The notes under the pieces: model-generated
The model's input: the letters and a program-made list of their open reading frames with translations, nothing else
Databases searched by the model: none
Told to the model about the DNA's origin: nothing
Position numbers and translations under genes: made by a program
Assembly (NCBI RefSeq): GCF_002087085.1
Contig: NZ_MWQY01000019.1
Span: 52,768 to 72,767, forward strand
DNA: 20,000 nucleotides
Direction: 5' to 3'
Shown here: positions 3,706 through 20,000 of the stretch, piece after piece
Numbering within the stretch: position 1 is the first letter of the stretch
Layout of the letters: each line of letters starts with the position of its first letter

Positions 3706-5268
3706 TTATTCTTCTGTTGTAAATATATAGCTCGAACTATAAACCGTACCCCCACGTGAATGGGTAACATAACGCCATGTATAGGTTACACCAGGCTGAA
3801 GTTTCTGTGAAAGAGGGACAATAAAATAATTAACATCCAGACCTGGAGCAACTGTTGTCCAAACATGACCGTTCAATATCTGCAGATCGTAGGTGGCAAG
3901 AAATGTGCCCGGCCATTGTATCGTCGGGGTCAGGGAAACCCCCTTCTCCTTATTGAATGGATATACAGGTGAAACATAGATTATCCTGCTCCCTGCAGGC
4001 GACCAGTTGTATCGGGCATCCCGTTCCATGACAGACACTGTATTGCTTCCATACGCAAGACTCGATCCGGGTGTATAACTGGTTGCTGTGGTAGAACTGC
4101 TCCAATTCCCGCTGTTCAATCTGTATTGATAGACGCCAGCTCCGCCGTTACCCCCGGTAGACCAGCTCCACGTGGGTGTACGGTCCAAAGTAGGTGATGT
4201 TCCGGATACAGACGGGGCATTCGGAGGAATAGAATCGATGTAAATCGTATCGGAATCCTGGGAGAAATTGCCCGCCCGATCATACACTGTAACTGTTGCA
4301 GATTTATTCACATAATTTGCCGCACCAAAATAGGCATTTGTCGATACGGGTGAACTTGATATATGTGTAAACAAGCCTGCGATATCCGTAGTATCAACCT
4401 TAACAAAGAGCTCACTAAGAGAACTGCTCCCCGCGTCGGACACTGAATATGTAAGTGGTACAGCGGTTGATGTAGAATATGAGGCTCCTCCGGCCAGGGA
4501 TACTCCTGATACGACAGGATCGAGACTGTCCAACTTAATGTTAACTGCTACAGGATTTCCTATAATATATGTGCCGCCTATCGTACATGAAACTCGAAAC
4601 CACACAGTTTTATTACCTTCGCCTGTGGATAATTCAAAGGGAACTGTTGTTGCTGTTAAGGCGCTTAATGAACCATTTACTTTCGGATCCCCAAAGTTCT
4701 CGTTTTCACTGACCACATAGTCGATTGACGAACCAGCATCATTTACAGAAATACCGATATTCACAGTCCGTGAATCCGTATAGCCACTGAGACTGGCTGG
4801 ATTCTGACTGATGACAGTAAATGATCCTGCCGGGAATTTGCCGGTAGTGAATCCCCATGAAACGCTCTCCTGTAAGGAGCTGTTATCAGTTCCACGCACC
4901 CCATTCACGGTTATAGTGTACGAGTGCTCACTCTGGAAGGGGGTTTCCGGTCGTATGGTCAGAACGTTTGTTACACTGTTAAAATCAGGATTATCAAAGG
5001 CGAGTCCGCTTGTCCCATCGCTGATATACACTGTGTCAGAACTTACTGACGTTAGAGCAACAGACCTGTCGAATTCTATTTCCAGAGGATCCTGCGGATT
5101 AATATTTTCAGCGCCTTTTCCCGGACTAAAACTTACCACCTCCAAAAACAGATCATTCGCGATCTTTACCTCAGTCTCGACCTCCGTGACAAAATCTATG
5201 GGTTCCGAGCAGGTTGTAACAAGGAGCAAGGCTGCAGAGAGCATAAAAATACCGATTAACCGTTTCAT
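3706..5268 (-). CDS. Putative lipoprotein with about five tandem Ig/FN3-like beta-sandwich domains (N-terminal SbsA/Big_5-like)
   Basis: Signal peptide MKRLIGIFMLSAALLLVTT-C. Big_5-like FLEVVSFSP..GAENI..IEFD..SWGFTT; Ser/Thr-rich repeats ending IKLDSLDP and YDRAGN..IYIDSIPP; TPTWSW..YQYRL module; C-terminal PGVTYTWR..YIFTT. SD GAGGAG lies in the end of the upstream gene. Confidence 0.8.
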   Translation of the reverse strand: MKRLIGIFMLSAALLLVTTCSEPIDFVTEVETEVKIANDLFLEVVSFSPGKGAENINPQDPLEIEFDRSVALTSVSSDTVYISDGTSGLAFDNPDFNSVTNVLTIRPETPFQSEHSYTITVNGVRGTDNSSLQESVSWGFTTGKFPAGSFTVISQNPASLSGYTDSRTVNIGISVNDAGSSIDYVVSENENFGDPKVNGSLSALTATTVPFELSTGEGNKTVWFRVSCTIGGTYIIGNPVAVNIKLDSLDPVVSGVSLAGGASYSTSTAVPLTYSVSDAGSSSLSELFVKVDTTDIAGLFTHISSSPVSTNAYFGAANYVNKSATVTVYDRAGNFSQDSDTIYIDSIPPNAPSVSGTSPTLDRTPTWSWSTGGNGGAGVYQYRLNSGNWSSSTTATSYTPGSSLAYGSNTVSVMERDARYNWSPAGSRIIYVSPVYPFNKEKGVSLTPTIQWPGTFLATYDLQILNGHVWTTVAPGLDVNYFIVPLSQKLQPGVTYTWRYVTHSRGGTVYSSSYIFTTEE

Positions 5269-5270
5269 GT

Positions 5271-7334
5271 CTACTCCTCCTCGTCCCAGCTGCCCACTTC
5301 CCGCTTAAGCGCCTGGGAAGCCCGTCCGGTCCCCTCCTGCGCTGATCCAAGATAGGCAAACTCCGATGCCAGTCCCGGAGCAGTGCTCCGGAGTTTCTGC
5401 AGAGCCCTGTCGGTCTCATCGTAGCGTTCCAGTTCGTAACTCGCCCTGGCCACCCCCAGGAGGGCCTTACTGTTGTTTGGAGCCGTCCTGCTCGCCCGGT
5501 CGTAATACTCCAGGGCCCGGGACATCTCTCCCTGCAGGTAGTATATATTTCCCAGGTTGACCATGGCGGGGACATATTCACTGATCCTGAGTATGGCCCT
5601 GAACTGCTCCGCCGCTTTATCCAGCACACCGAAGCGGGCATAGAGAATCCCCAGCTTGTTCCTGGTCCAGACGGTATTTGTCGCCGAGGCGAGCTGTCCA
5701 TTCAGTTCAATTACCCTGGGTTCGATCTGCCGGTTGATAAAGGTAATCAGGGCCTTCCGGTAGTTTTCCATCAGCCGATCCTCGTTGGGAAGCATGATGC
5801 CTGCTCCCCCTGCTGCGAAACCGACGGGTTCATAAAGCTTCCAGGCCTCCCGGACGGAATAGAAACCGGCTGTTCCGGCCTCACTGGTCTCCCGCCACTC
5901 CCTGGCGCCGATCTGCCAGGATTTCAGGAAGCCTTCACGCACAAGGGTTATTTCCACGGGAATCCAGGTATCATCTTCACGAAAGATCAGTTCCCGGGTG
6001 TCAATAAACAGCTTCTCCGCCTGCTCCGGGGCCATTCCAAGGGCAAAGGCCATGTAGATGTGACCGGGGGCGGTTATAAAAGCCGTCCTGATTCCCACTG
6101 ACTCCAGCAGAGCTGCATACAGAATGGAGAGATCGTCGCAGTCTCCCGCCTTGTAGGCGATGGACTGGTTCGGAAACTGAAGATAATCAAGGGCTTCTTT
6201 GTTGGCAGAGAATTCGGCATAGGGAGTAGTCGGGTCCTGAACATATCCCATGCCGTATACTCCCAGGGCTTCGTAAACGCCAAGGGCGGTGCGAAAGTTT
6301 TCGTTGATGGCGGTGGATTTATCGGAACCCACAACGGCGGCGACGTTCTTGGCAAAACTCATGACCAGGGGGTCCCGGGCGGTAACGAAGGCCGCAGCCT
6401 TGCGGTCATCATCCCAGGTCATGGCGTTCCGGTTATTTACGATTACGGTAACCGGTACGGTGGTACTCATGGATGTTCCGATATAGTCGTACTCCAGCAG
6501 CAGTTCCCCCGCGACCTTGGTGCCTTCGGTCACCCGGAATATCTCCTCGGAAAACAGGGCATATACAGGAACCGTCTCCTGTGCACCGGCCGGAAAGGTC
6601 CTGTACTCGGCGCACAGCTTCGGCTGGTCCATAAACTGCCGGACATAAAAACTGACCTTAAGGCTGTTCAGGGGTAAGGAGTCCCGGTTTTCCAGGTGAA
6701 GTACACCGGCGGGGTTATTTTCGTAATAAGAATAAAAAAGCGGAAATATGGGTATAAGCTCCGGGACATAGTAGAGGTCTGCCCCCCTGGAGGCGCCCCC
6801 AAGCTGGTAACGGACCCCCAGACCAAAACTCAGCCCCTGAAGGGCAGACTCACCGCTTGTCATATAATCACGATACTCGGCATCCAGACCAATGCTCAAA
6901 CCCGGATTTATACGGTAGGCGGCAAAGGCCCCTCCCCCCCAGAAAGGATCACGTACGGACCCAGCTTCTATAATTCCCATATAGATACCGCCGAAACCCC
7001 GAAGTCCCAGATTCAGACGGGCTATCGGCTGATACTGTAATCCGAGACTTGGCCCGATACTGAGAAAACTGGCGTTCTGATCGGAACCGTTTATCGGTAC
7101 CACCGTTGCATCCAGCAGAAGTCCGGAAAGAAGATACGGCAGAGAAGACGGAGTATAGGTACCTTCGAGGCTGACGCCTCCGCCGGCGGTGTAAAAGGCG
7201 GTTCCATCATCCAGCTCGGGACCAAGGGGTACAGTAAGCATGGGCCGGGCGCTTATGTTTATATCTCCGGACTGGCAAAAAATAAAACCGGAACACAGGA
7301 GCAGCAAGGCGGGGAGCATTCCATACTTTTTCAT
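5271..7334 (-). CDS. Exported multidomain protein: putative N-terminal outer-membrane beta-barrel, Ig-like linker, transglutaminase-like Cys domain, C-terminal TPRs
   Basis: Signal peptide, then about 155 aa of Gly/aromatic alternating strands ending FGLGVRYQL. AGDCDDLSILYAALLESVG..PGHIYMAF..WIPVE follows, then three TPRs (NKLGILYA, VNLGNIYY, LLGVARASY). ATG 7334 is preferred (AGGTG upstream); GTG 7343 is the alternative. Confidence 0.8.
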   Translation of the reverse strand: MKKYGMLPALLLLCSGFIFCQSGDINISARPMLTVPLGPELDDGTAFYTAGGGVSLEGTYTPSSLPYLLSGLLLDATVVPINGSDQNASFLSIGPSLGLQYQPIARLNLGLRGFGGIYMGIIEAGSVRDPFWGGGAFAAYRINPGLSIGLDAEYRDYMTSGESALQGLSFGLGVRYQLGGASRGADLYYVPELIPIFPLFYSYYENNPAGVLHLENRDSLPLNSLKVSFYVRQFMDQPKLCAEYRTFPAGAQETVPVYALFSEEIFRVTEGTKVAGELLLEYDYIGTSMSTTVPVTVIVNNRNAMTWDDDRKAAAFVTARDPLVMSFAKNVAAVVGSDKSTAINENFRTALGVYEALGVYGMGYVQDPTTPYAEFSANKEALDYLQFPNQSIAYKAGDCDDLSILYAALLESVGIRTAFITAPGHIYMAFALGMAPEQAEKLFIDTRELIFREDDTWIPVEITLVREGFLKSWQIGAREWRETSEAGTAGFYSVREAWKLYEPVGFAAGGAGIMLPNEDRLMENYRKALITFINRQIEPRVIELNGQLASATNTVWTRNKLGILYARFGVLDKAAEQFRAILRISEYVPAMVNLGNIYYLQGEMSRALEYYDRASRTAPNNSKALLGVARASYELERYDETDRALQKLRSTAPGLASEFAYLGSAQEGTGRASQALKREVGSWDEEE

Positions 7335-7417
7335 AGCCGTCACCTACCAGGCATTATTTGCAGGCAAATGCCGAAGCTCAACAAAGCAGGCAGGACTAAG
7401 GTCTTTGTCTACCTACA

Positions 7418-7549: not shown

Positions 7550-8536
7550 ATGAGCAGATTACCTATTATTGATCAGGACTGGATTAAAGTACGCGCCACA
7601 AACCTCAAGTATTACGATAATATCGAGCTGTATTTCAAGAATCCCTTCGGCAAGATCGTCCTGTACAAACCTGCGGGTATGAATTTCACCGATGAGAGCC
7701 TTAAAAAGAAGCCTTTCCTGGGGGATCTGTATGTTAAACCTGAAGATAAAATCCGGGCGCTTCAGGAGGCCCAGAGGGGATTCAGCAATAATTTCTCCGG
7801 CAGTATAATCTCCCAGGGAACCAGGAAAGTAAAAGAAGAACTGATCAGTATAATCGACGAAACCCTGGCTGAACCCCGGGCCGGAAGTCTGGCGGTGGTA
7901 CCGGAGGCCATGGAGGCCATAATTGACGGCTACTCCCGGCAGCCCAGCGTAATTAAAAACCTGGCAAAAATTTCCCACTCTGACTACTCAACGGCTATCC
8001 ATTCCATCAATGTCATGGCTCTTGCAGTGGGATACTGCTTTTATACCTGCCGTTCCAGGGAAGAGACCTTAACCATCGGTCTTGCAGCCCTGCTCCACGA
8101 CGTGGGAAAAACTGAAATTCCCCAGGAAATCCTGACTGCCCCCCGGAACCTGAGCAGTTCCGAGTTTCTTATCATGAAGAAACACCCGGAAATAGGGGCG
8201 GACATACTGGAAACCTACGCCTCGGACCTGCTCCAGACCCTCCCCGGAACCCTGGAACATCACGAAAAACTCGACGGCAGCGGGTACCCCCGGGGGACTA
8301 CCGACATATCCGATATTGGACAGATCCTCAGTGTAATCGACTGTTACGAGGCAATCACGAATGACGAGCGCCCATACAGGAACTCAATGAAACCGATCAG
8401 CGCGCTGAAACTCCTGAAGGAAGAGACTGACCTGGGCAGATTCAACCGCCGGATCTTTGAAGATTTTGCCTACAGCCTTACGGATTTTTCATCCGTTTCG
8501 AATCACAAGACCTACCGATCAATTCTGGGAACCTGA
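7550..8536 (+). CDS. HD-GYP domain protein (putative cyclic dinucleotide phosphodiesterase)
   Basis: HSINV, LLHDVGK, MKKHP, HHEKLDGSGYPRG and DCYEAIT..RPYR motifs. Confidence 0.9.
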   Translation: MSRLPIIDQDWIKVRATNLKYYDNIELYFKNPFGKIVLYKPAGMNFTDESLKKKPFLGDLYVKPEDKIRALQEAQRGFSNNFSGSIISQGTRKVKEELISIIDETLAEPRAGSLAVVPEAMEAIIDGYSRQPSVIKNLAKISHSDYSTAIHSINVMALAVGYCFYTCRSREETLTIGLAALLHDVGKTEIPQEILTAPRNLSSSEFLIMKKHPEIGADILETYASDLLQTLPGTLEHHEKLDGSGYPRGTTDISDIGQILSVIDCYEAITNDERPYRNSMKPISALKLLKEETDLGRFNRRIFEDFAYSLTDFSSVSNHKTYRSILGT

Positions 8537-13692: not shown

Positions 13693-14532
13693 CTACTGAT
13701 ATACATACTCCCGAAGTTCGTCGGCATGTTCCCGGAGCTTTCTGATGGCCCGCATCTCGATCTGGCGGACTGTTTCCGGAGAGATTCCCATACGCTCACC
13801 GATGGACTTGAGGGTATACTTCTTACCGCCGTAGAAAGAAAAGCGGTACAGCAGGATCTGTCGTTCCTTTTCCATCAGGTGTTCAAGAAAGCGCATGGTA
13901 TCTTCGTGCATGCTTTTTTTTATGAGTTCGCTGTCCGGATCGTAGGTATAGTCCTCGCACATGTCCATCAGGGTTCCGGATTCGAAATTCTCATCGCTGT
14001 CCAGGGAGGCAATGGCACTGGAAGCATTCAGCAGCGATCCGACCTCTTCGGCCGCCATTCCCAGCTCCCGGGCCACCTGGTCGACGGTCGGTTTCTGCTG
14101 CAGGCGCTGGGTAAGGGTATAATAGGTTTTCTGAATCTTCTTCAGGGCTTCTTCCTTGCGGTGGGGCAGACGAATGACCCGCCGTTTATTCGACAGAGCC
14201 CGGACTATGGACTGCTTGATCCACCAGGCAGCATAGGTGCTGAAGCGAACGTTCCTTCTGTAGTCATATTTACTTGCGGCCTTTATAAGGCCCAGATTAC
14301 CTTCCTGTACAATGTCGAGAAAGCTTACATCCGTCGAGGCGTAGGCCTTGGCGATTTTAACAACAAGTCGTAAATTGGCCTTAATCAGTTTTTCCCGGGC
14401 AAGCTCGTCACCCTGCATAATGCGGCGTGATAAATCCAGTTCTTCCTCAAAACTCAAGAGGGGTGTCGTTTTTATCTGCTGGAAGTAGGCCTTCAGGGAG
14501 TCTTCGCTCCGGGTAGCCTTTCTAGCTTTCAT
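13693..14532 (-). CDS. rpoS: Alternative sigma70-family factor lacking region 1.1 (spirochete RpoS-like)
   Basis: Region 1.2 DSLKAY..PLL; region 2 ANLRLVVKIAK, QEGNLGL, FSTYAAWWIKQ; region 3 RVIRLP; region 4 TLKSIG..ETVRQIE. ATG 14532 has SD AAGGAG. The symbol rests on the recalled Borrelia gene order and the sigma54 promoter, not on a search. Confidence 0.8.
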   Translation of the reverse strand: MKARKATRSEDSLKAYFQQIKTTPLLSFEEELDLSRRIMQGDELAREKLIKANLRLVVKIAKAYASTDVSFLDIVQEGNLGLIKAASKYDYRRNVRFSTYAAWWIKQSIVRALSNKRRVIRLPHRKEEALKKIQKTYYTLTQRLQQKPTVDQVARELGMAAEEVGSLLNASSAIASLDSDENFESGTLMDMCEDYTYDPDSELIKKSMHEDTMRFLEHLMEKERQILLYRFSFYGGKKYTLKSIGERMGISPETVRQIEMRAIRKLREHADELREYVYQ

Positions 14533-14557
14533 GGCACTCTCCTTACACAAGTATATA

Positions 14558-14574
14558 TGCAAAGTCCGTGCCAA
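14558..14574 (-). promoter_or_regulatory. sigma54 (RpoN) -24/-12 promoter of the sigma factor gene
   Basis: Minus strand TTGGCACGGACTTTGCA matches YTGGCACG-N4-TTGCW. Predicted TSS is near 14547, just upstream of the SD. Confidence 0.88.
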
Positions 14575-14685: not shown

Positions 14686-14997
14686 TCAGATCGGAAGTGT
14701 ATGTTTCTGTGAAAGCTGCCTGTAGAGCATGTCGGCGAGTCCCAGATTTGCGGAGTCGGACATCTTCCGGGCATATTTTTCATAGAGCATGTCCTCAAAG
14801 ATATCCTCCGCCATTCCCCCCTGCATAAGACCGCTTTTATTTATCGTTTTGCGCATGCTGTTCAGCATCTGCTCCAGCAGGATGGTTTCAAACTCCTTGC
14901 AGGCTTCCTTGAGAGCCTGCTGATCGCCGGCTTTGGGGGCCTTCGGGGTGTTCAGCGGCCTGTAACTCTCCATCATCTGCAGGGTATTCAATTCCAT
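14686..14997 (-). CDS. flgJ: Single-domain FlgJ (rod-binding domain only, no muramidase)
   Basis: LKEACKEFETILLEQMLNSMRKT..AEDIFEDML..LGLADMLYRQL; follows flgI; SD GGAGGT. Confidence 0.9.
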   Translation of the reverse strand: MELNTLQMMESYRPLNTPKAPKAGDQQALKEACKEFETILLEQMLNSMRKTINKSGLMQGGMAEDIFEDMLYEKYARKMSDSANLGLADMLYRQLSQKHTLPI

Positions 14998-14998
14998 C

Positions 14999-16036
14999 TT
15001 ACATTACCTCCAGGGTTCCGTAGAGAGCTCCGGCATGATCAACGGCCTGCAGGATTTCGATAAGACCCTTGGTATCGACCCCGATCTCCCGCAGAAGGTC
15101 AACAAAGTCCTCAACAGTCGGCCGCTGCTCAATCAGGAAGCTCTCACTCTCCTTATCGGAATAAAGATCGTCATCCATTATGCTGATTTTCAGCCCCTGA
15201 TACGAGACTGCCACCTTTCCTATGCGGACGTCTTTTCCCATCACCACAACACCGGTGCGGGGATTGACCACCACCCGGTCGGTAAAGCCGGGGGGTACGC
15301 TGAGGTTCTCGAGCTGGGCAATCATTTCCACCGTTCGTTCTGCGTACTCTTCGGGAATCCGCACACTGATCCGGGCTGCATCGGCAAAGGCCACCTCAAA
15401 CTCACTGTTCTCCCGGATGGCCCTGGAAACCGCCGCGGCAGTACTGAAATCAGGTTCCTTGAGAAGAATGCTGACCGTACCGTTTTCGCTGACCCGGGAG
15501 TTTACCGCCCGTTCCATTATTCCGCCGCCGGGCAGAGAAGCTACAGTATCGTTGGAGGAACCGCTTATACCCGGGATACTGCCCTGGGCCACAGCGTATA
15601 CGGCACCGTCCGCTCCTTTCAGGGCTGTCTGCAGAAGCACCCCGCCGATCAGGGATTTTGCATCGCCGATACTGGACACCCGTACGCTTATACGCTCTCC
15701 CGGCTGCACATAGGCGGGAAGATCCGCGGTCACCAGCACCACGGCGCTGTTCTTGCTGCGGATATCCCGTTCGCTCACCTGCTCAGCAAAGTTGGATACC
15801 ATGTTTGCCAGAAAGCGCCTCATAAGGGGAGAAGACTGGGAGTCCCCCTTACCCGCAAGGCCGGTCACAATGCCGAGTCCGGCGAGCTGGTTCTCCCTGA
15901 ACCCCTCTACCACCGATATCTCCCGCAGACGGATCTCATCCTGGGCAAAAAGCGGGGGATTTCCGACAACCGGGCTGAGAAAAAAGATGGATACCGCGAG
16001 CAGTATCAGTTTATATTTCTGTGGTAGTGTCTTCAT
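14999..16036 (-). CDS. flgI: Flagellar P-ring protein FlgI
   Basis: Signal peptide, RENQLAGLGIVTGLAGKGD, KNSAVVLVTADLP, VSSIGDAKSL.GG.LL, VYAVAQG, VVVNPRTGVVV and AGAL. Confidence 0.95.
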   Translation of the reverse strand: MKTLPQKYKLILLAVSIFFLSPVVGNPPLFAQDEIRLREISVVEGFRENQLAGLGIVTGLAGKGDSQSSPLMRRFLANMVSNFAEQVSERDIRSKNSAVVLVTADLPAYVQPGERISVRVSSIGDAKSLIGGVLLQTALKGADGAVYAVAQGSIPGISGSSNDTVASLPGGGIMERAVNSRVSENGTVSILLKEPDFSTAAAVSRAIRENSEFEVAFADAARISVRIPEEYAERTVEMIAQLENLSVPPGFTDRVVVNPRTGVVVMGKDVRIGKVAVSYQGLKISIMDDDLYSDKESESFLIEQRPTVEDFVDLLREIGVDTKGLIEILQAVDHAGALYGTLEVM

Positions 16037-16755
16037 CAGAACCTGACCTCCCCTTCACCGGGACCTGTAAGCAGGGCGTCAAACCTGCGGCGGGTATGGG
16101 TCAGGGTAACCGGCACACGGTCGCCGACTTCGGCACCGCGATTGGTCCTGCCCTCCGCCTCAATAATTAAGCCCTTTCGGGATATGTAGACGGTAATACG
16201 GCTTCCCGCCGGAACCCGTTCTCGATCCTTTTCCGGGGTTTTCAGGAATACCACCGGTACCGGGTTATGATCCGGATCTCCGGTCTCGAGAAACCAGCCT
16301 GACCCCCGCCTGCCTGGACGAAGGTCCTGTGCCCCGGACAGCGGGATGATATCTGCTTCCGATATGGAGAAACCGTCCCCGCCGTTTCCTGATTCCCGAC
16401 TGATCAGGGATTCAATTTTTCGTAACAGAGGGCCCAGGGTATGGTTATTTACGGATGAAAAGCCTTCAGGAATCAACCAGATTCCACTGCCGATAAGCGC
16501 CCCGGGAAGACCTCCCGGAACAATACCGGAAATACCCTTCTGGCTCAGATAGACAAAGCGCCCTTCCGTCTCGACAGGAAGGGCTTCATCGTACAGTTCA
16601 TGGGCTGCCGGCACAAGGAAAAGATCCTTTATCCGTACATCTCCTCCGACCCTGACCTGTTCAGCCAGATAGAAGGTTTCCCCGTTCAGTCGACCGATTC
16701 CCGCAGTCAGAACCAGCACAATAAGCAGCACGGAAAACCCAGGAAAAACCTTCAT
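16036..16755 (-). CDS. flgA: Divergent FlgA-like P-ring assembly chaperone
   Basis: Signal peptide. C-terminal VPAGSRITV..GLIIEAEGR..AEVGDRVPV..GPGEGEV resembles the FlgA C-terminal domain. Lies between flgG and flgI with a TGATG overlap. Confidence 0.7.
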   Translation of the reverse strand: MKVFPGFSVLLIVLVLTAGIGRLNGETFYLAEQVRVGGDVRIKDLFLVPAAHELYDEALPVETEGRFVYLSQKGISGIVPGGLPGALIGSGIWLIPEGFSSVNNHTLGPLLRKIESLISRESGNGGDGFSISEADIIPLSGAQDLRPGRRGSGWFLETGDPDHNPVPVVFLKTPEKDRERVPAGSRITVYISRKGLIIEAEGRTNRGAEVGDRVPVTLTHTRRRFDALLTGPGEGEVRF

Positions 16756-16791
16756 ATCACAGCATACCCATTCTATCCTGGTATATCAGGA

Positions 16792-17586
16792 TCAGCGCTT
16801 GAGGTTGTTGGCAATGCCGAGCATCGAATCGGAAGTCTGGATCGCCTTGGAGTTGAGTTCGTAGGCTCTCTGGGCCACGATCATATTGACCATCTCCTTG
16901 ACCACCGAAACATTGGACATTTCCAGGAATTTATGGATCGTCTTTCCCATTCCGTCAAATCCGGGACGACTGCCGATGGCGTCCCCCGAGGCATTGGAGA
17001 CCTTGTAGAGGTTTTCTCCCACCGCCTGGAGACCCGCTGGATTCACGAAGCGGTAGAGTTCAAGCTGTCCGACCTCGATGGGGTCGTCGGACCCCGCCAC
17101 CTTGGTGGTTACCCGTCCGTCCTGGGAAATGCTGACGCTGTCCCGCACAAAACCCTCGGGCAGGGTCAGGTCCGGCATCAGACGATACCCGTTGGAGTTA
17201 ACGAACTGCCCCTGTGAATCGATCTTGAAGGAACCGTCCCGGGTATAGCCGTAGGTACCGTCGATCAGGAGGACCCGGAAAAATCCCTCCCCCTGGATTG
17301 CAAGGTCGGATACATTGTCCGTAGCCTGCAGAGCCCCCTGGGTATGGAGCTTCTGGGTTGCCGCCACCCGGGTACCGTGACCGACCTGGACGCCTACCGG
17401 CACGGTGGTCAGTTCCGTAGCCGGAGTCCCGGCAATGCGGGAGGTCTGGTACAGAAGGTCCTCGAAATCGATCCGGTTCTTCTTGAACCCAGTGGTGTTG
17501 ACATTGGAAAGGTTGTTGGCAATGGTATCGATATTAAACTGCTGCCCCGTCATTCCCGACGCGGCTGTCCATAATGAACGCATCAT
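16792..17586 (-). CDS. flgG: Flagellar basal-body distal rod protein FlgG
   Basis: MMRSLWTAASGM, IANNLSNVNTTGFKK, FEDLLYQ, YTRDGSF, FVNPAGL and LEMSNVSVVKEMV; SD GGAGGT. Confidence 0.97.
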   Translation of the reverse strand: MMRSLWTAASGMTGQQFNIDTIANNLSNVNTTGFKKNRIDFEDLLYQTSRIAGTPATELTTVPVGVQVGHGTRVAATQKLHTQGALQATDNVSDLAIQGEGFFRVLLIDGTYGYTRDGSFKIDSQGQFVNSNGYRLMPDLTLPEGFVRDSVSISQDGRVTTKVAGSDDPIEVGQLELYRFVNPAGLQAVGENLYKVSNASGDAIGSRPGFDGMGKTIHKFLEMSNVSVVKEMVNMIVAQRAYELNSKAIQTSDSMLGIANNLKR

Positions 17587-17599
17587 GCTGATTTACCTC

Positions 17600-18448
17600 C
17601 TATACCCGCACAGCCTGGTTTATAAGCCGGTCGGACATCTGGTCATGGGCCTGTATGGTCTTCTGGTTTGCCTCATAGGCCCTGTTTACTTCTATCATGC
17701 GCACCATCTCGCGCACCGGATTCACGTTGGACCCCTCGAGGAAGCCCTGACGCACCTGGAGTCCGTCATCCACACCGGCGGCGACGGGGTCTCCGGAGAA
17801 GCGATCGTTAACCCAGAGACTGTCTCCCTGCTTTTTCAGGTACCTGTCCCGGGGAAAATCCACCAGCTTGAGACGGTCCACAAGCTCGATGTTCTCCCAC
17901 TCGTTCTCTTCCAGGGAGACAAGACGTTCGGGGTCGTCGGCAAAGGTACTGTTCTGCCAGATCCGGCCCTCCTGGTCGACGACAAAGTTGTTCTTTTTAA
18001 GACGGATGATCCCGTTCTCTCCCATCACGGGGAGTCCCTGCTTGTTGACCAGGATTCCTTCCGGGCTTACGTGGAAGGAACCGTTGCGGGTAAAGCGCTC
18101 GCCCTGGGGGGTATCGACGGTAAAGAAACCTTTTCCTTCCAGGGCAAGATCGAAGGGATTCTCCGTCTGCTTCAGGGCCCCCTGGGAAAAAACGGTGTAG
18201 CTCTCGTTGTACTCCACGCCGGAGCCGAGAGTGCCGATAACCGGCGCCTGGTCCACCGATCCCGGGGGAATGGTAAAGACGCCGTCGTCATTCATTCGTC
18301 GCAAAAGGAGTTCCGGAAAGGCCTTGTGTACCGGGGTGTCCTTTTTGTAACCCGTCAAATCCACGTTGGCCAGGTTGTTCGAGATAGCATCAAGGTTGTG
18401 CATCTGGGCAATCATGCCGCTGGCGCCGGTATAAATCCCGCGTATCAT
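17600..18448 (-). CDS. flgF: Flagellar basal-body rod protein FlgF (FlhO)
   Basis: MIRGIYTGASGM, ISNNLANV..TGYKKD, FTRNGSF and LEGSNVNPVREMV; directly upstream of flgG; SD GGAGGT. Confidence 0.9.
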   Translation of the reverse strand: MIRGIYTGASGMIAQMHNLDAISNNLANVDLTGYKKDTPVHKAFPELLLRRMNDDGVFTIPPGSVDQAPVIGTLGSGVEYNESYTVFSQGALKQTENPFDLALEGKGFFTVDTPQGERFTRNGSFHVSPEGILVNKQGLPVMGENGIIRLKKNNFVVDQEGRIWQNSTFADDPERLVSLEENEWENIELVDRLKLVDFPRDRYLKKQGDSLWVNDRFSGDPVAAGVDDGLQVRQGFLEGSNVNPVREMVRMIEVNRAYEANQKTIQAHDQMSDRLINQAVRV

Positions 18449-18570: not shown

Positions 18571-18642
18571 GCCAGAATAGCTCAGGGGTAGAGCAACGCT
18601 CTCGTAAAGCGTAGGTCGTGAGTTCAAATCTCACTTCTGGCT
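18571..18642 (+). tRNA. tRNA-Thr (anticodon CGT)
   Basis: Acceptor GCCAGAA/TTCTGGC, D arm GCTC-AGGGGTA-GAGC, anticodon arm ACGCT-CTCGTAA-AGCGT (CGT at 18603-18605), T arm GTGAG-TTCAAAT-CTCAC. CCA is not encoded. Confidence 0.97.
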
Positions 18643-18649
18643 CGTCAAG

Positions 18650-18811: not shown

Positions 18812-19422
18812 TCAACTTTTCCAATAGAGGATATTATCGACAAACTCGCTCTGTATCATGCCCTCATTGTACAGACAGGACAGGAACGAACGTATGGTAG
18901 ATCCGACCAGCGCATACTGAGCATAGTCAAGCTGCAGATCATATTCATCGCACACAGTCTTCAGAATCACATCATAATTCTTTGCTTCCTGAAGAATAGA
19001 CACGATAAAATCTTCTATCCTTTTCACTGCATCCATGTTTAATTGGGCAATTTCACGGATATCCGTTGTAATATCGGCATGGGAAGGAACATAGTAGTTC
19101 ATCTTTCTGCTCATTATTGATTCTATTGTACGTATATATCCCCTTACATCGTAAATAAAGGGAATTCCATATTTTTCCAGAATCGGTTTTCCGAACAGTG
19201 AATCCGCGATAAACAGAACGTTGTCCGTCGTCTCTATACCGACCATATTGAAGTAATGTCCGGGAAGACGATGGACCGTGAACAGGCTGCTTATTTCCGA
19301 TTCTTCATGTACTGTTCCCGTTACCTTCGAAGGCTTGGCCCTGAAGAATTTATTCCGGATATCCTTCACCTCCATTCCTCCCCACAGGAAAGCCGCTTCC
19401 AGTTCAGGGTGTTCGATAAATA
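18812..19422 (-). pseudogene. 3' part of an MBL-fold metallo-hydrolase gene interrupted by an IS
   Basis: LPGH..MVG, LFIADSLF and YVPSH are C-terminal MBL motifs. The frame extends upstream of Met 19375 (FIEHPELEAAFLWGG) right up to the IS end. The HxHxDH motif is absent. Confidence 0.8.
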
Positions 19423-20000
19423 GGGTCTCCTGAAAAACTCAGTTTCCCCGTTTATACGGCAATTATGACCGGTTTTCTATCAAATATTACCGAAGGAAAA
19501 GCGGAAAGAAAAAGCGCATAAAGATCCTTGAGGATCTTCTCCATATTCATCACCAGCATGTTCATCATGATGGTTGTTTCACTGGTTATCCGGAGTTTCT
19601 CATACACGCAGTCCATTCCATATCTGCGTTTGCCAACACCAAATGCACCTTCGATTGCCTGGCGGATACTTTCATCCCGGCGTTCCTGTTTTCTTTTCGC
19701 CCTCAATATCTTTTTATCAATTCCTGCAGTGTTTACAGGACGACCCAGGGGAGGACCAGATAATCTGATACTACGTTCTTCACACCAGGCCCGGTTCTCC
19801 CGCGTCCGATAGATCTTATCCACATGTACCGATTCTGGGTAATGACCACATCGATCTTTATAGCGTTCCACCTGCATCTGTAAGTCGCCGCTTTCATTGT
19901 ACGGTTCCCATTCCAGCCGGTCGATATACATCAGACCATGTTCAGTAATTGCAGCAGAGATCTTGGCTCCAAACTCATAGGCTCCTCTGGCCTTACCGCG
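19423..20000 (-). mobile_element. IS5-family insertion sequence, downstream end (continues beyond the window)
   Basis: Candidate terminal IR GGGTCTCCTGAAAAACTC (19423-19440) is preceded by TA and lies 11 nt past the transposase stop. The boundary is uncertain by 1-2 nt. Confidence 0.85.
19452..20000 (-). CDS. IS5-family DDE transposase, C-terminal part
   Basis: Frame is open to the window edge: RGKARGAYEFGAKIS, then YPESVHVDKIYRTRENR, GPPLGRP and RQAIEGAFGVGKRRY. Confidence 0.92.
   Translation of the reverse strand, partial: RGKARGAYEFGAKISAAITEHGLMYIDRLEWEPYNESGDLQMQVERYKDRCGHYPESVHVDKIYRTRENRAWCEERSIRLSGPPLGRPVNTAGIDKKILRAKRKQERRDESIRQAIEGAFGVGKRRYGMDCVYEKLRITSETTIMMNMLVMNMEKILKDLYALFLSAFPSVIFDRKPVIIAV

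Follow-up and report, generated by a model that had tools for sequence, protein, structure and literature searches.

LapG has been described (PMC3032545) as a periplasmic enzyme whose target is the N-terminal portion of a large immunoglobulin (Ig)-repeat surface protein encoded nearby. The Slam proteins, as presented in PMC5449769, pair N-terminal periplasmic tetratricopeptide repeats (TPRs) with a C-terminal DUF560 barrel of 14 predicted strands, and their linkage to lipoprotein genes, given there for 185 of 353 Slams, predicts their substrates. In the Bacteroidota, a short and mainly acidic lipoprotein export signal (LES) located after the lipidated Cys is reported to decide the fate of unrelated lipoproteins (PMC5080379), and in Borrelia an LptD homologue has been reported in a preprint (10.1101/2022.12.21.521298) to flip surface lipoproteins. 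The sorting, display and shedding of the many lipoproteins of spirochaetes are only partly understood. Here we analyse a two-gene cassette located within a stretch of 20,000 nucleotides (nt) of contig NZ_MWQY01000019.1 (assembly GCF_002087085.1, positions 52,768 to 72,767 of the forward strand), hereafter the window, that encodes a transglutaminase-like protein, denoted A, and a lipoprotein, denoted B. The two genes form a dedicated, conserved pair that recurs in many free-living spirochaetes and is most likely a self-contained cassette of the spirochaete cell envelope.

A conserved gene pair encoding a transglutaminase-like protein and a lipoprotein

Gene A occupies positions 5271..7334 of the minus strand and encodes, from its ATG codon, a protein of 687 amino acids (aa) identical to catalogued protein P0003; an alternative in-frame start, GTG, is located at 7343 (open reading frame (ORF) 5271-7343). 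Gene B (3706..5268, minus strand) encodes a 520-aa lipoprotein consisting of an N-terminal tag followed by five Ig-like beta-sandwich domains. Both genes are translationally coupled in the window. Their junction reads GGAGGAG-TAG-AC-ATG, with the stop codon of gene A at 5271-5273, the AC dinucleotide at 5269-5270 and the ATG of gene B at 5266-5268, and the Shine-Dalgarno sequence of gene B, GGAGGAG (5274..5280, minus strand), is contained within the last (Glu-Glu) codons of gene A. This agrees with a first-pass annotation of the locus, made from the sequence alone, which had placed the two genes 2 nt apart with the ribosome-binding site of the second inside the first. Since a histidine-kinase gene converges on the end of gene B and an HD-domain gene diverges from the start of gene A, the predicted operon comprises A and B only. 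In two studies, RNA libraries of marine sediment yielded contigs that match portions of both genes at an identity of at least 95% and leave the rest uncovered. Since DNA may be present in libraries of this kind, the coverage is weak evidence for expression at best.

The association of A with lipoprotein genes was surveyed in 79 fetched loci carrying A, in which 70 A genes were followed by at least 600 nt of sequence. A neighbour was scored when an ORF on the same strand, either 150 aa or longer or else cut by the contig end, was positioned from -47 to +39 nt and encoded a signal peptide with a Cys. An adjacent same-strand lipoprotein gene was found after A in 59 of the 70 cases, many of them showing ATGA-style overlaps, and the adjacency persisted across A proteins sharing 36-45% identity with that of the window and in varied genomic contexts. 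Furthermore, all-against-all clustering of the genes from 36 loci measuring 9 kb or more returned A and B as the only recurring genes. The survey bears out the linkage to a downstream lipoprotein gene that had been foreseen in the first-pass annotation, and the clustering of the 36 loci revealed no third recurring gene. Tandem arrays of the type A-B, A-B were present in three loci (L014, L015 and L023).

The domains carried by the partner proteins are diverse and include Big_5, Big_13, Big_7, PKD, InlB-type repeats, FG-GAP, RCC1 and LDL-receptor/NHL propellers, as well as Laminin_G, BNR, FGE-sulfatase and LVIVD; some distant paralogues of A adjoin LVIVD lipoproteins. As a separate observation, four distant A paralogues (L102, L105, L106 and L107) lie directly beside genes for giant proteins of 1578-1994 aa that carry FG-GAP, Big_5, Big_7 or Laminin_G domains, the giant gene being located upstream of A in L102, L105 and L106. 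The giant protein of L105 also bears a type 9 secretion C-terminal sorting domain.

Homologues of A are numerous. A word-indexed search returned more than 2247 proteins at E ≤ 0.001, and a profile of the core (33 sequences, residues 186-520) matched 4705 cluster representatives at E ≤ 0.001, 1770 of them at E ≤ 1e-30, in a search space of 1.84 billion. Among 41 related genomes, 21 contained a match to A at E < 1e-40, and the core was present in 37 of 301 sampled Spirochaetota genomes; it was absent from three heavily sampled families of that sample (0/28, 0/45 and 0/38). The named relatives of A belong to uncultured Spirochaetaceae and to Candidatus Marispirochaeta associata.

The transglutaminase-like core of protein A

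Protein A is organised as a signal peptide, a small barrel-like segment, a beta-rich segment, a transglutaminase-like core, TPRs and a conserved C-terminal tail. Profile comparison delimits a conserved region from residue 186 to 520 (5775..6779, minus strand), in which the beta-rich segment precedes the transglutaminase-like domain. The putative nucleophile, Cys399, is located in a GDCDD motif (codon at 6138..6140, minus strand) and was assigned by conservation and by its alignment with the Cys of the canonical G-x-C motif. His425, within a PGH motif (6060..6062, minus strand), is a putative general base assigned from conservation alone, and Glu461, within WIPVEIT (5952..5954, minus strand), aligns with the GW..DPT Asp of the canonical domain and would replace this usual Asp as the third residue of the triad. 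The Cys and His codons listed in the first-pass annotation (6138-6140 and 6060-6062) proved exact, and so did its acidic residue in WIPVE, the codon of which lies at 5952-5954.

Cys399, His425 and Glu461 are all invariant in an alignment of 44 sequences, and each of them is retained in 97 of 100 A cores, a set that includes distant paralogues. In the three exceptional cores the residues are lost together (R/E/Q twice and N/E/S once), which is the pattern expected of residues working as one unit. None of these three triad-less copies has an adjacent lipoprotein gene. The triad-less copies, found in L071 (A gene ends at 5989 and 8424), L072 (start at 3899) and L096 (1389-3359), have a triad-bearing copy as a tandem neighbour or within a few kb, and they may represent pseudo-enzyme partners of active paralogues.

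When compared by hhalign with a profile built from 18 canonical Transglut_core (PF01841) domains of related genomes, the 33-sequence core profile matched with a probability of 96.2% (E 2.1e-9, 118 columns). The resulting alignment superimposed GDCDD on the canonical G-x-C motif and WIPVEIT on GW..DPT, leaving Glu461 opposite the canonical Asp. When the core was set against one canonical domain of this genome at a time, hhalign gave only weak matches (47% and 4%), and the 18-sequence profile was the decisive comparison. Additionally, 41 of the 44 A homologues matched Transglut_core at E ≤ 0.01, the best of them at 8.3e-6. Profile comparison thus shows that the core of A belongs to the transglutaminase-like superfamily, with its predicted transglutaminase/papain fold, and, judging from its conserved residues, A looks like an active enzyme.

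The first-pass annotation had also likened A to LapG. The catalytic-like set on which this likeness was built stands, both in the constraint on Cys, His and Glu (97/100) and in the superfamily of the core (hhalign 96.2%), but membership of the LapG family does not. PF06035 (the LapG family, Peptidase_C93) does not appear among the families listed, 25 of 26, for the 44 homologues, and a search of the whole genome yielded no match at E ≤ 1, whereas the positive control in Caulobacter did match. No significant similarity was obtained between the core profile and PDB sequences; a weak local similarity (E 0.72) connects the GDC(E/D)D motif region with chain 4u65_E, annotated as 'Putative cystine protease', which we take to be a LapG-type protease.

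Two further observations concern related domains. A match to the NCBIfam anti-phage ProA model (E 3.2e-8) fell far below the cut-off of that model and was dropped, a literature search on it having yielded nothing of use. The canonical Transglut_core protein G000:C11:2463-2759 (L112, same contig) carries a Ser at the nucleophile position (GDS versus GDC), and from this substitution it may be either catalytically inactive or Ser-using.

Protein B and its N-terminal tag

The signal peptide of B, MKRLIGIFMLSAALLLVTT-C20, is encoded at 5209..5268 of the minus strand and ends in LLVTT-Cys20. It presents a hydrophobic core and the lipobox Cys, invariant in 22 homologues, and by these features B qualifies as a bacterial lipoprotein and predicted substrate of signal peptidase II. 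The Thr at position -1 makes a relaxed lipobox of the kind found in spirochaetes. A Big_5 Ig-like domain (Pfam E 8.4e-12) spans residues 43-142 (4843..5142, minus strand), and four further beta-sandwich domains were predicted by AlphaFold2 and Foldseek in residues 148-518 (3715..4827, minus strand). The AlphaFold2 model, generated from a 22-sequence alignment with a mean predicted local distance difference test score (pLDDT) of 83.9, consists of a helix (residues 26-37) followed by five beta-sandwich domains, and its best Foldseek matches were multi-Ig/FN3 ectodomains, S-layer proteins and the GhpA fibre; a comparison of B with PDB sequences gave no match. The earlier description of B as a multi-Ig lipoprotein is upheld by the lipoprotein signal peptide, the Big_5 domain and the five modelled beta-sandwich domains.

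Behind the lipid-bearing Cys, residues 21-45 of B (SEPIDFVTEVETEVKIANDLFLEVV; 5134..5208, minus strand) form the tag, a C-x-E/N-P-hydrophobic-D stretch followed by an acidic helix that leads into the first Ig-like domain. The segment after the Cys is common to the partners of A. In 52 of them, N occupies position +2 in 33 and P position +3 in 28, and position counts over the same set show that next come a hydrophobic position, then Asp or Leu, and then the acidic helix. The tag is the best-conserved part of B, with a mean top-residue frequency of 0.63 compared with 0.36-0.46 elsewhere. The genome of the window contains one copy of A, and B is its only protein in which the tag motif follows a signal peptide; x-N-P was found in none of 152 crude lipoprotein candidates of this genome. 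The tag is therefore specific to B in this genome.

The type of tag tracks the clade of A on a tree of 100 A cores. One clade is associated with C-[SDE]-N-P-[VI]-D...ANDRYLEV and another with C-E-N-x-L-L..E.DVE, and the tag of a distant clade, C-P-S-x-I-S...KDE.GP.ITITSP, is found with LVIVD propellers. The tag, as seen in these comparisons, suggests a recognition signal in its behaviour.

Predicted membrane anchor and TPR region of protein A

The N-terminus of A, MKKYGMLPALLLLCSGFIFCQSGD, was read as a signal peptide, in accordance with the first-pass annotation. The peptide itself (MKKYGMLPALLLLCSGFIFCQS, approximately residues 1-22; 7269..7334, minus strand), identified from the translation, lacks a canonical lipobox, and the homologue in L013 lacks a Cys at the first position.

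Residues 23-185 (6780..7268, minus strand) were assigned as a probable outer-membrane beta-barrel anchor of about 8 strands on the basis of sub-threshold profiles and of the hydrophobicity pattern. The OMP_b-brl family (PF13505) matched the N-terminal part of A at E 0.029 and 0.011, with 15-17 bits against a cut-off of 28.7, and at E ≤ 0.01 it matched 1 of 44 A homologues. A 29-sequence N-terminal profile searched against the PDB retrieved five chains, all of them small transmembrane beta-barrels (Opa60, NspA and designed barrels), at E 0.056-0.48. The language-model neighbours listed (7 of 30) were clusters of small outer-membrane barrels plus one TraO cluster, and 20 of the 30 named neighbour hits fell in the OMP_b-brl set, with scores of 0.93-0.94. 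Moreover, the N-terminal profile shows an alternating hydrophobicity that fits approximately 8-9 strands. A genome search for DUF2715 gave no match. These consistent but weak, sub-threshold signals make a small outer-membrane beta-barrel the most likely identity of residues 23-185. At approximately 160 residues, the barrel-like segment matches an 8-stranded anchor in size rather than a conduit.

The TPR region of A (approximately residues 540-660; 5355..5717, minus strand) was detected by TPR_1 (Pfam E 2.2e-7), which is present in 44 of 44 homologues, and the TPRs proposed earlier are thereby confirmed. A search of PDB sequences with a profile of whole A returned TPR hits only. Other members of the family show variant architectures: in some (e.g. 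among P0133, P0161 and P0156) the place of the barrel is taken by a WD40 propeller or an extended array of TPRs, and others bear Pro/Glu/Ala-rich tails of 400 aa after the TPRs. Family members of 1000-1300 aa were also considered as possible A-B fusions and rejected, their extensions being Pro/Glu/Ala-rich low-complexity regions or N-terminal WD40/TPR arrays, with no fused cargo.

Genomic surroundings of the cassette

The gene divergent from A (7550-8536, plus strand) encodes an HD_5/HD-domain protein and is not conserved beside the cassette elsewhere. We take its domain to be of the type found in HD-GYP cyclic di-GMP phosphodiesterases. LapG systems are under cyclic di-GMP control, and the presence of the HD gene beside A is therefore suggestive. 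An Rfam scan of the window for an upstream regulatory RNA returned a tRNA only, and promoter and terminator scans gave results at chance level.

Farther away, an ordinary flagellar basal-body cluster (14686-18448, minus strand) encodes an FlgJ-like rod-binding protein, the FlgI P-ring protein, an FlgA-like chaperone and two FlgG/FlgF-type rod proteins, and a gene for a sigma-70-family factor (13693-14574) lies just downstream of it on the same strand. A tRNA-Thr gene (CGT; 18571-18643, plus strand) is followed, at the end of the window and of the contig, by a DDE transposase gene (19452-19931, minus strand), and this region is a possible insertion site. No Pfam family was found for two minus-strand ORFs, 1-1074 (358 aa, running off the window edge) and 18812-19375 (187 aa).

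Proposed function of the A-B pair

We propose that A works in the periplasm as a cysteine enzyme anchored to the outer membrane and that it processes the tag of its partner, a reading to which we assign roughly an even chance. A would be exported through the Sec pathway, and its first 160 or so mature residues would form a small beta-barrel in the outer membrane. If the strands of this barrel are even in number, the beta-rich segment, the core and the TPRs would all be left in the periplasm, where the core would adopt the transglutaminase/papain fold with a Cys399-His425-Glu461 triad. A would then recognise the tag of B, plausibly through its TPRs, and its cysteine active site would process it. 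The likeliest reaction would be a cleavage that matures B or frees it from its lipid anchor, as LapG does when it cuts the N-terminal retention module of LapA. The analysis shows the pairing, the B-specific tag, the superfamily of the core and the constraint on its three residues; in this scheme we infer the membrane topology of A, the physical recognition of the tag and the chemistry. In the light of these results, what the first-pass annotation had observed is confirmed, with the barrel as its one soft part, and its interpretation of A as an enzyme or translocon that exports, cross-links or releases the neighbouring lipoprotein is partly supported.

Several observations weigh against this proposal. 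Concerning the enzyme, Transglut_core matched A alone, around the Cys, with 17.3 bits (E 0.006), below its cut-off of 23 bits; hhalign did not align His425 with the canonical His, and the spacing in A (26 from Cys to His and 36 from His to the acidic residue) is unlike that of the canonical domain; and PF06035 was absent among the families of A at E ≤ 0.1. Concerning the substrate, LapG substrates carry an Ala-Ala-type cleavage site, and no conserved site of this type was found in the tag, and no cleavage site can be named; in addition, the agreement between tag type and A clade could arise from shared descent alone. As for the pairing, 11 of the 70 A genes lack an adjacent lipoprotein gene (L043, L045, L054, L055, L059, two in L071, L072, L074, L086 and L088), a downstream lipoprotein gene was found in only about 8 of 20 distant A paralogues, and the A-B junction was bridged by none of the RNA-library contigs from the two studies.

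An alternative that we consider unlikely is that A works as an export adaptor or translocon, similar to Slam or to the machinery behind the LES, which would take the tagged N-terminus of B through its periplasmic TPRs and move B uncut to the surface or into vesicles, the tag being a sorting signal. A gene for a barrel/TPR protein beside lipoprotein genes is the hallmark of Slam and its substrates, and the linkage found here (59/70) can be set beside that given for 185 of 353 Slams in PMC5449769. Moreover, the acidic tag directly after the Cys resembles the Bacteroidota signal, C-X-K-(D/E)2-X or SDDDD, as given in PMC5080379, and the domains of the partners are adhesin-like or S-layer-like. Nevertheless, a barrel-like segment of approximately 160 residues is too small for a protein conduit, the domain order of A is opposite to that of Slam, and WD40 or TPR arrays substitute for the barrel in some family members. 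DUF560 does not figure in the list of families matched by A (E ≤ 0.1); a genome-wide search with PF04575 was empty too, but its positive control was equally silent. An adaptor would, furthermore, leave without a role the Cys, His and Glu residues, which 97 of 100 cores retain and the other three have lost together. Consequently, the translocon half of the earlier interpretation, which had likened A to Slam and is the weakest part of that interpretation, found no backing in the small barrel-like segment, the reversed order of domains or the families listed for A, where no PF04575 match appears, and a Slam-like translocon is unlikely.

It is similarly doubtful that A is a transamidase or cross-linker that would join B covalently to peptidoglycan, to another protein or to A itself, maybe after a sortase-like cut within the tag. 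The fold predicted for the core is that of transglutaminases, the Cys-His-acid set is invariant, Asn is conserved in the tag both at position +2 and within the A-N-D motif, Lys is frequent there, and the combination of variable partners with one constant tag resembles, by analogy, the sortase, exosortase and PorU systems. Yet the tag has no conserved Gln, most characterised bacterial members of the superfamily are hydrolases, and the data suggest no acceptor, a third conserved gene being absent from the 36 loci. The same analogy would allow a broader reading, to which we give a small chance, in which the cassette would correspond, at the N-terminus, to the sorting systems of sortase, exosortase and PorU. 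The tag would mark otherwise unrelated proteins (Ig-repeat, propeller, lectin-like and enzymatic ones) as cargo, each with its own outer-membrane-anchored cysteine transpeptidase or protease, which would cut within the tag, possibly at Asn-Pro, and release or re-anchor the cargo. Such an arrangement would provide free-living spirochaetes with a modular, one-enzyme-per-cargo control of surface display.

Finally, it is also unlikely that A and B are co-transcribed but independent, with A acting on another envelope substrate (e.g. peptidoglycan peptides or other proteins), B being adhesin-like and the tag a structural linker, since the tag persists where unrelated first domains replace Big_5, adjacency is kept at 36-45% A identity in varied contexts and the three triad-less A copies also lack a lipoprotein neighbour, even though lipoprotein neighbours are missing from 11 of 70 close and from many distant A genes, the first tag residues run into the first Big_5 strand in the close clade and shared descent can account for the tag type tracking the A clade.

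The proposal that A is an anchored enzyme processing the tag of B defines a testable pairing between a probable membrane-anchored cysteine enzyme and a lipoprotein with a recognisable N-terminal tag. If A does process the tag, the cassette would represent a new route for the maturation or release of envelope lipoproteins, with a large set of substrates predictable from gene order alone and a tag-enzyme pair that would be portable.

Comparison with known systems

Full-text literature searches, whose coverage largely excludes subscription journals, retrieved no paper on the A-B architecture, in agreement with the statement of the first-pass annotation that no characterised system of this architecture was known. 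The closest comparison is with LapG and LapA of Pseudomonas fluorescens and its relatives, which share with A and B a periplasmic enzyme of the transglutaminase/papain fold (location and fold being predicted for A), a Cys-His-acid set, putative in A, and a neighbouring Ig-repeat partner. In contrast to LapG, A has no PF06035 match, places Glu instead of Asp as the putative third residue and combines its core with a probable membrane barrel and TPRs in a single chain. B is a Sec-dependent lipobox lipoprotein, whereas LapA is a type 1 secretion adhesin, and neither a LapD-like receptor nor any other third gene is conserved with A-B in the 36 loci.

With Slam of Neisseria and other Proteobacteria, A shares the TPRs and a barrel, the latter predicted in A, together with an adjacent gene for a lipobox protein (59/70). 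However, the barrel-like part of A is N-terminal and comprises approximately 160 residues, the TPRs are C-terminal and a catalytic-like core is inserted between them; the TPR_Slam matches obtained in 2 of 44 A homologues reflect generic TPR similarity. Unlike the LES, which is general to many lipoproteins of the cell and has no dedicated adjacent gene, the tag described here combines C-x-N/E-P-hydrophobic-D with a helix, occurs once in the genome and is always next to an A gene. Canonical PF01841 proteins have in common with A the superfamily, the G-x-C nucleophile motif and the W...D/E-x-T motif, but A appears to represent another subfamily, with a shifted His position, Glu in place of Asp and other flanking domains. 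In summary, as predicted from the proteins it encodes, the A-B cassette is unusual among known pairs of a transglutaminase-fold enzyme and a surface protein in combining a probable barrel fusion, TPRs, a Cys-His-Glu set, lipoprotein partners and a clade-specific tag.

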